A DNA stretch of 64,000 nucleotides, taken from NCBI RefSeq assembly GCF_017348835.2, contig NZ_CP071375.1; one strand, written 5' to 3'. The DNA is from Escherichia coli. Lineage in GTDB: Bacteria; Pseudomonadota; Gammaproteobacteria; Enterobacterales; Enterobacteriaceae. Shown piece by piece: positions 45,001 through 48,000 of the stretch; the stretch's first letter is position 1, and each line of letters begins with the position of its first letter. Position numbers: made by a program.

Positions 45001-48000
45001 TCAATCATGCGTTTCGGGTCCATAAACAACTGACCGGGGCGCATAGGGATCTCACGCAGCTCCACATCCCAGTAGCGGGCGAATTTATGCCAGCAGATTT
45101 GTACCGGACCGCACACCAGGTTTGGTTTATCCGTTGGTTTGCCTGCAGCTTCCATACGCTTGCGCCAACGCCATTTCATCGCCATCCCGCCGAGCATACA
45201 GGCCTCGGAAGAACCAATGGTGTTGGTGCCAACGGCCTGACCATTTTTCGGCGCAGGCGCATGCCACAGATCGGCAACCATGTTTACGCAACGCAGGTCG
45301 ATGGCTGCGGATTGCGGATATTCTTCTTTGTCGATCCAGTTTTTATTGATCGACAAATCCATCAATTTATGGACGTTTTCGTCGTCCCAGGTCTGGCAGA
45401 AAGTGGCCAGGTTCTGACGAGCGTTGCCATCAAGATATAATTCATCATTGATAATCTGAAATGCGACATCGTCGCGCATTTCGTGCAGCGGAAAACGTTT
45501 TGATTCTGCGATAGTGGAAATAGACTTCGCACCAAAACGTGAATCGAGTAGTTCCGACCTTAAATCCGTTACTTGCTTCTTATCCATTTTAAACTCCTTA
45601 AAATGATTGGATCGCATTAAAAAAGTAGGATTTATCGATAAAGTAAGCAAGTGCAAAGGACTCGGGTTTAAATAACAAAATCCTAATGTTATTTATCGTG
45701 AGATATTACGCGAATAATATTTTTTCATTGAAAAACAATATAATAGGGAGTTCTTGGGTGGTGGCAAGGTGTTTTATGCTGTTATTTTTATGCGCATTCT
45801 GTGCCTCCTGAATTATCACGTAAAAATCAGACCTTAAAATATCACTATTAGTACTTAGTTATTATTTTGAACGCATTTATAAAATTATTACATAAAAATG
45901 GCGAATATTGCTAAAATTCCCGCCAACGATGTGTTGACGGGACTGTTATTATTTTGGCAATAATACTCCGGTATAGGTATTTACCGGATGAGAAAGATAT
46001 TGTTTAACGGCAGTATTAACATTCTCTACTGTCATTTGTTTCAACAGTTGCTCCTGCTCAGTCCATGCTGCAGGATAGTCATATTGAATAAGACTATTTA
46101 CAATGGTGTTCGCTAATTGTTGAACGCTACGCTGTTGGATATCGAGGCTGCGCTGAACGTTTTGCTGGTATTCATTCAGTTCTTGCTCACTGATCCCTTT
46201 AGCCAGACGCTTAACCATCACTTCATTCGCTAACGTTAACAGTTCATCATGTCGTTCTGGTTGACAAGTAAAAGCCAGCAAATGACTGATATCTTTGGCC
46301 TGAGGATCAACCGAGAGGCGAGAAGAAACGCTGTATGCCCCAGATGCCTGTTCACGAATATTAACGCGTAGATCTTTTGCCAGTGCGACGTTAAAAGCAT
46401 CGAGCGCCATACGCGTCGCCAGATTAACAGGTGTCCGGGAATCATAACGCTTCCACTGTGAAACCTGTGCCACAGGTTCATTTTGTTCCTTTACAGTAAC
46501 CGATGCATTGTCCGTCGCGCGAGTTAATGGTTTACCTGCGGCTAATGGCGAATCAGAGTGTTTGATTGATCCTAAGTAACGCGTAATTAACGCCACGAGT
46601 TTGTCTTCTGCGACATTACCGACAATGACAAACGTGATATCCGCTGGAGATGAAAACAACTGGCGATCGGCAGCCAGCGCATCTGCGGCAGTAAACTGTA
46701 CAATCTGATTTTCTTGCAGTAATTTCGTGCGGTCATCAGCATAGCGCGTCTCATACATCTGCTGGGCGAATTTCTCCGCTGGACGCTGGTCGAGCGTTTT
46801 CAACGCCTGAATTTGAGCATTTTGTAGCGATGCCCAAATATTGTCGTTAATCGTGCTGTGGGTGATTCGCTGGTTAATCAACTGGAAACCAGGTTCAGGG
46901 TTATTAGTCCGCGCGCTAACGGAGAGCAATGTATTCATGCCACTGACTTTACTGCTCATGGTTACCGAGTTTTCCGCACTCCAGCGTTTCAGGCTGGAAG
47001 AGGAGAGTTCACCAACGCCGCTTCCGCTTACTGCTTTATTTGCCAGCGCGATAAGTGATTTTTGCTGCGCAGGGAAACTTAACTCGCCTTTATTCGATAC
47101 GGCAGTAATTTGTAGCTTTTGCTCTTCACCCGCGGATTTTGCCAGAATAACCCTGGCACCATTGGAAAGTGTTAATGATGTCAGATTCTCAGCCAGCGTT
47201 TCTTTGCTGCTAATTTCCGCCTGTGGGTCAGCGTCTACTGTTAACGATAAATTTCTGCCTGGGAAGATGTAAGCCGCCAGCTTTTTGTTGGCGTACTCTT
47301 TTTCCAGCGCCAGGATAGCCGCAGGAGACAATGCTTTATTGGCGGCAACCTCATTGTTTACCATTTGCTCCCAAAATGCGTCCTGGTTCTTTCTTAACTG
47401 CTGCCATTTTTCCGTCAGACTTTGCACGGTAATTTGCTGCCACAGACGTTTCGAAAGTTGATATGTCTCTTCCGGCGACAAGAACGGCGTATTATTTAAT
47501 GAGCTGGATGCCAGGCGACTGGTCAGCATACGTAAATCACGTTCAGCTTGCTGATCAACCGCATTTTTCAGCCAGGTGAGGCGGGTAGATTTGACATCAT
47601 CGAGTTCTTCAGCAGAAAAACCATGCTGATCAATGGTTGCCAACTCTGCCATTAATGCATTCGCAGCATCCTGCATATTATCGTCTCGTGCATTTACACG
47701 GAAAAACAGCGACTGATAATCGGGTGCAATTCTAACGCTGCGCGCAGTGCCGCCAGAAATAGTCTTCAACTCGCCCGACTGTATGCGTTCCTGCAGACGT
47801 TGATTGAACAGCTGAACTAACATGCTCCATTCAGCTTGTTCGATAAAGCTTTGCTCATCGTTCACTTGTACCATTGGCAGGCGATAATAGAGTGCGATGC
47901 CGTTCACCCGGTTTTCTTTATCATTAATGATATTAAAGCGCAGGTGATTTTCGGCTTTTGTCGGCCAGACGCGATTTTCAGCGGCCTTGTTAGCCGGAAG

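Follow-up and report, generated by a model that had tools for sequence, protein, structure and literature searches.

An exact GAD box upstream of gadBC in an Escherichia coli strain: a known site in its known place

The region upstream of gadB in the 64-kb stretch of Escherichia coli DNA analysed here (the window) raises the question of whether a 20-bp sequence on the minus strand is a genuine GadE site, whether it places gadBC under GadE control as in K-12, and which protein would occupy it. An initial annotation had named the sequence a GAD box by its agreement with the GadE consensus. The 20-mer, TTAGGATTTTGTTATTTAAA, was found as a single, exact match in the 64-kb window, and it remained the only match when up to three mismatches were allowed. 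Dinucleotide-preserving shuffles gave a mean of 0.02 matches at the same threshold (≤3 mismatches), and 2 of the 100 shuffles contained one. The site lies within the pqqL–gadB intergenic region, with the gadB start codon (45587) 79 nt downstream, and the box was thus borne out as exact, unique in the window and followed by gadB. The consensus relied on was also correct. The GadE site characterized earlier is asymmetric and is given as TTAGGAttTTgTTATTTAAa (Seo et al. 2015, PMC4918353); the window 20-mer matches it in 20 of 20 bases. With no base altered, every G is present, including the conserved G that RcsB/GadE binding needs (the base changed in the M1 mutation). The box is a textbook example of a regulatory site and stands in its usual place; it was already known, and none of it is new.

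The genes around the site follow the K-12 order (yddB-pqqL-gadB-gadC-digH-dosC), and neither gadB nor gadC is disrupted. The encoded GadB is 100% identical to K-12 GadB and matches GadA at 461 of 466 residues; GadC differs from its K-12 counterpart by one substitution, Q485K. Across 10 kb around gadB the window is 98.4% identical to K-12. Identity to strain F2_81 (pig, Australia) is 99.98% along the full 64 kb, and identity to strain PE164 (pig, China) is also 99.98% over the 12.6 kb compared. The coordinates of the features discussed below are collected in Table 1.

Table 1. Features at and around the gadB promoter in the window (TSS, transcription start site; positions with a minus sign are relative to the predicted TSS)
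Feature	Coordinates	Strand	Basis and remarks
GAD box, TTAGGATTTTGTTATTTAAA	45667..45686	minus	exact match; spans -72 to -53 of the predicted TSS, centre -62.5
Gap between GAD box and -35, 16 bp, CCCGAGTCCTTTGCAC	45651..45666	minus	16-bp length also in PMC2887963
-35 element, TTGCTT	45645..45650	minus	sequence and spacing; identical in K-12
Spacer between -35 and -10, 17 bp	45628-45644	minus	sequence
-10 element, TACTTT	45622..45627	minus	C just before the element; identical in K-12
-10 to start codon, 34 nt	45588-45621	minus	followed by ATG at 45587
5' leader, 27 nt, predicted TSS at 45614	45588..45614	minus	identity to K-12
Shine-Dalgarno sequence, AAGGAG	45594-45599	minus	GGA within it is the published CsrA site
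RcsB box, CGATAAATCCTA	45626..45637	minus	abuts and overlaps the -10 element; predicted limits
Equivalent of the MG1655 gadBC GadE ChIP-exo peak, 32 bp, -47 to -78	45661..45692	minus	indel-free K-12 alignment
Distal region equivalent to the two upstream GadX peaks (-164 to -245)	45778..45859	minus	transferred via K-12 alignment
gadB, glutamate decarboxylase B, 466 aa	44187..45587	minus	intact ORF; annotated gadB/gad in matching genomes
gadC, glutamate/GABA antiporter, 511 aa, second gene of the operon	42496..44031	minus	ORF and annotation in matching genomes
pqqL	45949-48744		ORF; upstream of gadB
Stem-loop, likely pqqL terminator	45918..45942	minus	6 nt after the pqqL stop codon; 10-bp stem, -16.7 kcal/mol

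The arrangement of the promoter places the box where an activator site is expected from the literature. According to published work, 16 bp separate the GAD box from the -35 element downstream, and the box has its centre 63 bp before the start site (PMC2887963). The gadB RNA synthesised for a CsrA study began at -27 relative to the start codon (PMC11210196). A leader of 27 nt would set the transcription start at 45614, and hence the GAD box at -72 to -53 with its centre at -62.5; this start position is carried over through identity to K-12, falls on a C and may be off by one or two bases. In the window, then, the distance to the -35 element is 16 bp and the centre lies about 63 bp upstream of the predicted start.

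The core elements themselves are poor, the -35 hexamer TTGCTT being a weak match to TTGACA. A simple sigma-70 consensus scan did not report the gadB promoter, which fits weak core elements and dependence on an activator. RpoS involvement is listed for the gadBC promoter (Seo 2015). The two hits that the same scan did return, 45767-45740 on the minus strand and 45813-45840 on the plus strand, were rejected, as 2.5 hits were expected by chance.

At gadA an RcsB box lies directly upstream of the -10 element, and gadB is reported to keep it with one change, the leftmost G being replaced by C (PMC2887963). Alignment of the gadA box, GGATAAATCCTA, with the window sequence CGATAAATCCTA gave exactly this left-end difference. 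In the published model the RcsB box at -10 is a low-affinity repressing site for RcsB (PMC2887963).

Compared with K-12, the pqqL–gadB intergenic region (about 390 bp) carries 11 substitutions and no indels, and none of the substitutions falls in the 20-mer. The K-12 gadB box matches at 20 of 20 bases and occupies the same intergenic position, with the same 16-bp gap, -35 element, -10 element, leader and start codon. Over the stretch that begins 10 nt before the box and ends with the start codon, the two sequences are identical but for one base, the window having C for A at 45665 (-51), two bases 3' of the box. This is the sole difference from K-12 near the GAD box, and it is located inside the footprint but outside the box itself. 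The ten further substitutions are spread over about 280 bp upstream of the box. The initial annotation had also called for a comparison with the gadA promoter, and this was positive: the K-12 gadA box forms an island of 20/20 identity with the window box, whereas the upstream flanks are unrelated and the 16-bp spacer sequences differ. Biochemical demonstration of heterodimer binding comes from gadA only.

Conservation was assessed within E. coli and across species. The 30-mer made up of the box and its 10 upstream nucleotides occurred without a mismatch in 5364 of the 5426 complete E. coli genomes, and the wider gadB upstream region was present at a coverage of at least 80% in 5399 to 5401 of the 5426. 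Lineages were then sampled down the identity range (O157:H7, Ec-FL1-1X, UID2309220033, 1162C and E23). The GAD box was invariant in nine diverse E. coli gadB promoters, and the segment from -49 to the start codon was also invariant among the sampled lineages. Many substitutions were seen among these lineages upstream of -82. The three bases directly after the box (-52 to -50) read CCC, CAC, CCA or ACC, and the C of the window at -51 therefore lies at a naturally variable position; C at -51 is present in at least one other lineage (EcFL1).

For the cross-species comparison, one genome per bacterial or archaeal species (298 Gb) was scanned for the exact 20-mer, so that the result speaks to exact boxes and not to variation in species without a match. 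The 20-mer occurred in 11 stretches, eight of which were promoters of gadA or gadB in Escherichia. In these eight the genes behind the box were of the gadA type (MDQKLL, or MEQKLL in E. albertii) or the gadB type (MDKKQV), and they came from E. albertii, E. whittamii, Escherichia sp. E1V33 and two divergent E. coli-like species. The three matches outside Escherichia, in Lentisphaeria and Bacteroidales metagenome-assembled genomes, encoded LGFCYLK/N in apparent repeat proteins, showed no gad promoter pattern and were taken as chance.

In all 19 distinct Escherichia gadA and gadB promoters examined, the distance from the box to the -35 element was 16 bp, although those 16 bp vary widely in sequence, and the -35 to -10 spacer was 17 bp in every one of the 19. 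The GAD box thus stands as a conserved island against diverged flanks, both in the nine gadB promoters and in the other Escherichia species. A fixed 20-mer at a fixed 16-bp distance, with a drifting gap sequence, fits an activator that needs a set position on the promoter.

The claim that gadBC is under GadE control as in K-12 is supported, with an amendment regarding the binding species. Since gadE and rcsB were not found in the 64-kb window, GadE control is not readable from the window alone, and the evidence comes from K-12 and from related genomes. In K-12 at pH 5.5, gadB expression fell by 6.4 and gadC expression by 5.9 log2 units when gadE was deleted (Seo 2015). The GadE ChIP-exo peak P3 on gadBC is listed at a distance of -62.5 from the transcription start (Seo 2015 Supplementary Table 1); its signal is modest, with S/N of 2.78 (Seo 2015). 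Transfer of this peak to the window assumes that Seo 2015 used the same start site with the 27-nt leader, and if so, the peak would be centred on the GAD box to the base.

In the original model GadE alone, as a homodimer without RcsB, binds the GAD box. Direct GadE binding to the box was described in earlier reports cited in PMC2887963 and is repeated in later papers (PMC6128205, PMC4918353), and ChIP-exo does put GadE at the position of the box in vivo (Seo 2015). Nevertheless, ChIP is unable to tell GadE alone from RcsB/GadE. At the gadA promoter GadE alone neither shifted nor protected the GAD box, and MBP-GadE protected nothing (Castanie-Cornet et al. 2010, PMC2887963). The older shifts attributed to GadE alone were explained by RcsB co-purifying with it, GadE from an RcsB-containing host having carried RcsB; shifts with mixed tags put both proteins in the complex, and RcsB is genetically required for gadA/BC expression (PMC2887963). 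The complex on the gadA box contains RcsB and GadE in equal amounts, its apparent constant being about 10 nM; the two proteins together give a DNase I footprint from -50 to -76 (PMC2887963), which the segment of the window equivalent to the GadE peak (45661..45692) roughly matches. When a G of the gadA box was changed to C, the complex no longer formed and activation by GadE was lost in vivo (PMC2887963). Binding by GadE alone is therefore very unlikely, and the one point of the initial annotation that needs correcting is the identity of the binder, very probably the RcsB/GadE heterodimer (PMC2887963). Joint control of gadBC by GadE and RcsB through the box is supported, as far as the gadA biochemistry may be read across to gadB. 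The distinction matters in that it changes how a GadE gel shift must be done: as GadE does not bind alone, a shift with RcsB-free GadE would be falsely negative.

A different role for the 20-mer would be that of a competition or repression site for GadX and GadW rather than an activator site. Older work summarised in PMC6128205 does hold that competition for the gad box allows GadW and GadX to act as repressors. However, in MG1655 at pH 5.5 ChIP-exo puts GadX on gadBC at +66, -184 and -225, not at -62.5 (Seo 2015; the two upstream peaks are P6 and P7 of Supplementary Table 3), and gives no peak there for GadW (Seo 2015). The lack of a GadX or GadW peak over the box argues against competition for it as their main action on gadBC. 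The GAD box is unlike the published GadX/GadW motif (PMC4918353), and gadB expression changes more than 50-fold with deletion of gadE as against less than two-fold with gadX, making this role extremely unlikely as the main one. Sequence resembling the published GadX/GadW motif AtGtcTGATtTttatattat (PMC4918353) was found further upstream, as AGGTCTGATTTTTACGTGAT (45815-45834), inside the distal GadX region.

The box could also be intact but idle, with GadE or RcsB missing or inactive, or with the promoter disabled by the changes at -51 and upstream. The window holds no regulator gene, 13 of the 5426 E. coli genomes have no gadE match and 53 of the 5426 have no rcsB match (matches being found in 5413 and 5373 genomes, respectively). 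Moreover, gadB is annotated as frameshifted in the near-identical PE164, so the system does decay within the lineage. Against this, gadB and gadC of the window are intact, and F2_81 at 99.98% identity has a complete acid fitness island (gadA, gadX, gadW, mdtFE, gadE, hdeD, hdeAB and yhiD), in which gadE, gadX, gadW and gadA are intact. The GadE of F2_81 matches the K-12 protein at 100% identity and its gadA carries the same GAD box, and from this near-identical genome GadE would be expected in the source strain as well. The C at -51 is shared with EcFL1 within the polymorphic -52 to -50 triplet. An idle box is scarcely credible on this evidence.

The canonical GAD box of gadBC is thus very probably an upstream activator site at -62.5 that is bound by the RcsB/GadE heterodimer. 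In the proposed mechanism, GadE would accumulate at acid pH or in stationary phase and the heterodimer, composed of a NarL/FixJ-type response regulator and a LuxR-type activator, would assemble on the box. From -62.5 it is predicted to activate the promoter, whose core elements (TTGCTT and TACTTT, 17 bp apart) are weak; judging by position, the likeliest route is class I activation, with recruitment of RNA polymerase. As a result gadB and gadC would be transcribed, and the decarboxylase and the glutamate/GABA antiporter would consume protons at extreme acid pH. The RcsB box at -10 may mediate repression when Rcs is strongly activated. Further layers may act through the distal GadX sites (-164 to -245) and through CsrA on the 27-nt leader, the sequences of all of which are conserved in the window. 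GadE occupancy, GadE dependence and heterodimer binding as known from K-12 would carry over to the source strain. The strain would keep the standard wiring of its chief operon for resistance to extreme acid, a result of use for annotation only.

The box shares features with two other groups of sites. Its left half (TTAGGA...) resembles the half-site of RcsB and RcsAB boxes of the NarL/FixJ type (PMC2887963), and one of the two proteins bound there is RcsB. In contrast to these boxes, the GAD box is asymmetric and requires GadE as the partner of RcsB, in place of RcsA or another RcsB; it is bound far more tightly than the RcsB-only box at -10. The other GadE ChIP-exo sites (hdeA, hdeD, gadE, yhiM and others; motif TTARGAWWWWAAATA) have a TTAGGA-type left half in common with it, whereas the full 20-mer is specific to gadA and gadB. 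When the whole window was searched with this loose 15-mer GadE motif at up to two mismatches, the GAD box was not retrieved. The nine scattered matches that were obtained in the window, against 3.6 expected, had no convincing context, and TTARGAWWWWAAATA was rejected as a detector.

A quantitative difference from K-12 was also considered. The substitutions relative to K-12 include a cluster at -127 to -151, and together with the change at -51, which falls in the heterodimer footprint, these lineage changes might retune the RcsB/GadE or the GadX input. Such retuning is a long shot; if true, this pig-associated lineage would express gadBC at a level other than that of K-12.

On the upstream side of the intergenic region, the stem-loop near the pqqL stop codon had a z-score of -4.76, and 0 of 200 shuffles folded as well; the T tract 3' of it is weak (AAUUUUAG). 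As a putative terminator it probably ends pqqL transcription and would thereby shield the gadB promoter from read-through. A terminator-like inverted repeat on the plus strand beside the GAD box (45696-45713) was discarded, as it is not conserved among lineages and there is nothing there to terminate. An Rfam scan of the window returned no RNA family near the GAD box. On the downstream side, CsrA has been mapped to the GGA of the gadB Shine-Dalgarno sequence and to other GGA motifs early in the coding sequence (PMC11210196), and the CsrA-site sequences of gadB in the window are unchanged relative to K-12.

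The gadB promoter aligned with that of K-12 showed a single difference between -82, relative to the inferred transcription start, and the gadB start codon: at -51 the window has C where K-12 has A. The variant base is located 2 bases 3' of the GAD box, outside the box itself and within the published RcsB/GadE footprint, which spans -50 to -76 on gadA (PMC2887963). The triplet directly 3' of the GAD box reads CCC, CAC, CCA or ACC depending on the E. coli lineage, and the sequence on both sides of it is invariant. Just upstream of the GAD box, TCGTGAGATATTACGCGA forms a short and imperfect inverted repeat; together with the A/T run after it, it was flagged as terminator-like. 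The repeat differs between lineages of E. coli, and no role for it is apparent.

Strain PE164 carries the same promoter, identical throughout, and its locus (L002) aligns to the window with one gap over 12.6 kb. In PE164, gadB (6414-7816 in L002) is annotated as frameshifted, whereas gadB of the window is intact. The regulator genes were searched by megablast in the collection of 5426 complete E. coli genomes. No match was found to rcsB in 53 of these genomes or to gadE in 13, and in one genome rcsB is split by IS1. GAD-box-dependent activation should be absent from these strains.

Sequences related to the GAD box were also seen at other positions. TTAGGATTTGTAATA, which has the left half in common with the GAD box, precedes the start codon of ydeP by about 28 nt, on the strand opposite to ydeP. 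It was retrieved by a loose GadE motif search allowing 2 mismatches; as this search gave 9 matches in the window against 3.6 expected, the resemblance is probably due to chance. In the scan of one genome per species, the exact 20-mer occurred within coding sequence at three loci (L018, L019 and L021) from Lentisphaeria and Bacteroidales MAGs. There it translates as LGFCYLK/N, in proteins that look like TPR/Sel1-type repeat proteins. These occurrences are attributed to chance, an A/T-rich 20-mer having coincided with a repeat motif that is common.

Features of the window (~, approximate coordinates)
Feature	Position	Strand	Description
yddL/yddK/yddJ region	~8990-12840		ompC-like porin gene, leucine-rich-repeat fragment, espR1
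SECIS_3 (Rfam)	14789-14847	+	within fdnG; 84.3 bits, E = 1.4e-18
Toxin gene	~18850-19410		RelE/ParE family; directly upstream of yddM
ddpF-osmC segment	~23860-30600		LysR regulator; CoA transferase subunits A and B; acetyl-CoA acetyltransferase; 3-hydroxyacyl-CoA dehydrogenase; GntP permease; 3-hydroxybutyrate dehydrogenase
ddpA region	~34460-36010	-	stop at 35402
ddpX	36024-36605		intact ORF, 193 aa
148-bp segment	36044-36191
Variant base	45665	-	-51
Inverted repeat	45696-45713	+
TTAGGATTTGTAATA	60056-60070	+

Gene content also departs from that of K-12. The segment between ddpF and osmC, absent in K-12, separates these genes by about 6.7 kb, compared with 55 bp in K-12. In place of the yddL, yddK and yddJ fragments of K-12, the annotation of strain F2_81 gives a frameshifted porin gene and, in addition to the leucine-rich-repeat fragment, an intact gene for the T3SS effector EspR1. 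The same annotation places the toxin gene beside yddM, which encodes a HigA-type antitoxin; in K-12, yddM has no adjoining toxin gene.

F2_81 is 99.98% identical to the window elsewhere and lacks the 148-bp segment; in its annotation, ddpX is a pseudogene, marked as truncated. Downstream of ddpX, the ddpA reading frame of the window ends at the stop listed in the table, consistent with the annotation of ddpA in F2_81 as a pseudogene with an 'internal stop'. The lineage of the window may lack an active D,D-dipeptide transporter.

The Rfam scan of the 64-kb window gave no match besides SECIS_3, which is expected here as the signal for inserting selenocysteine into formate dehydrogenase N.
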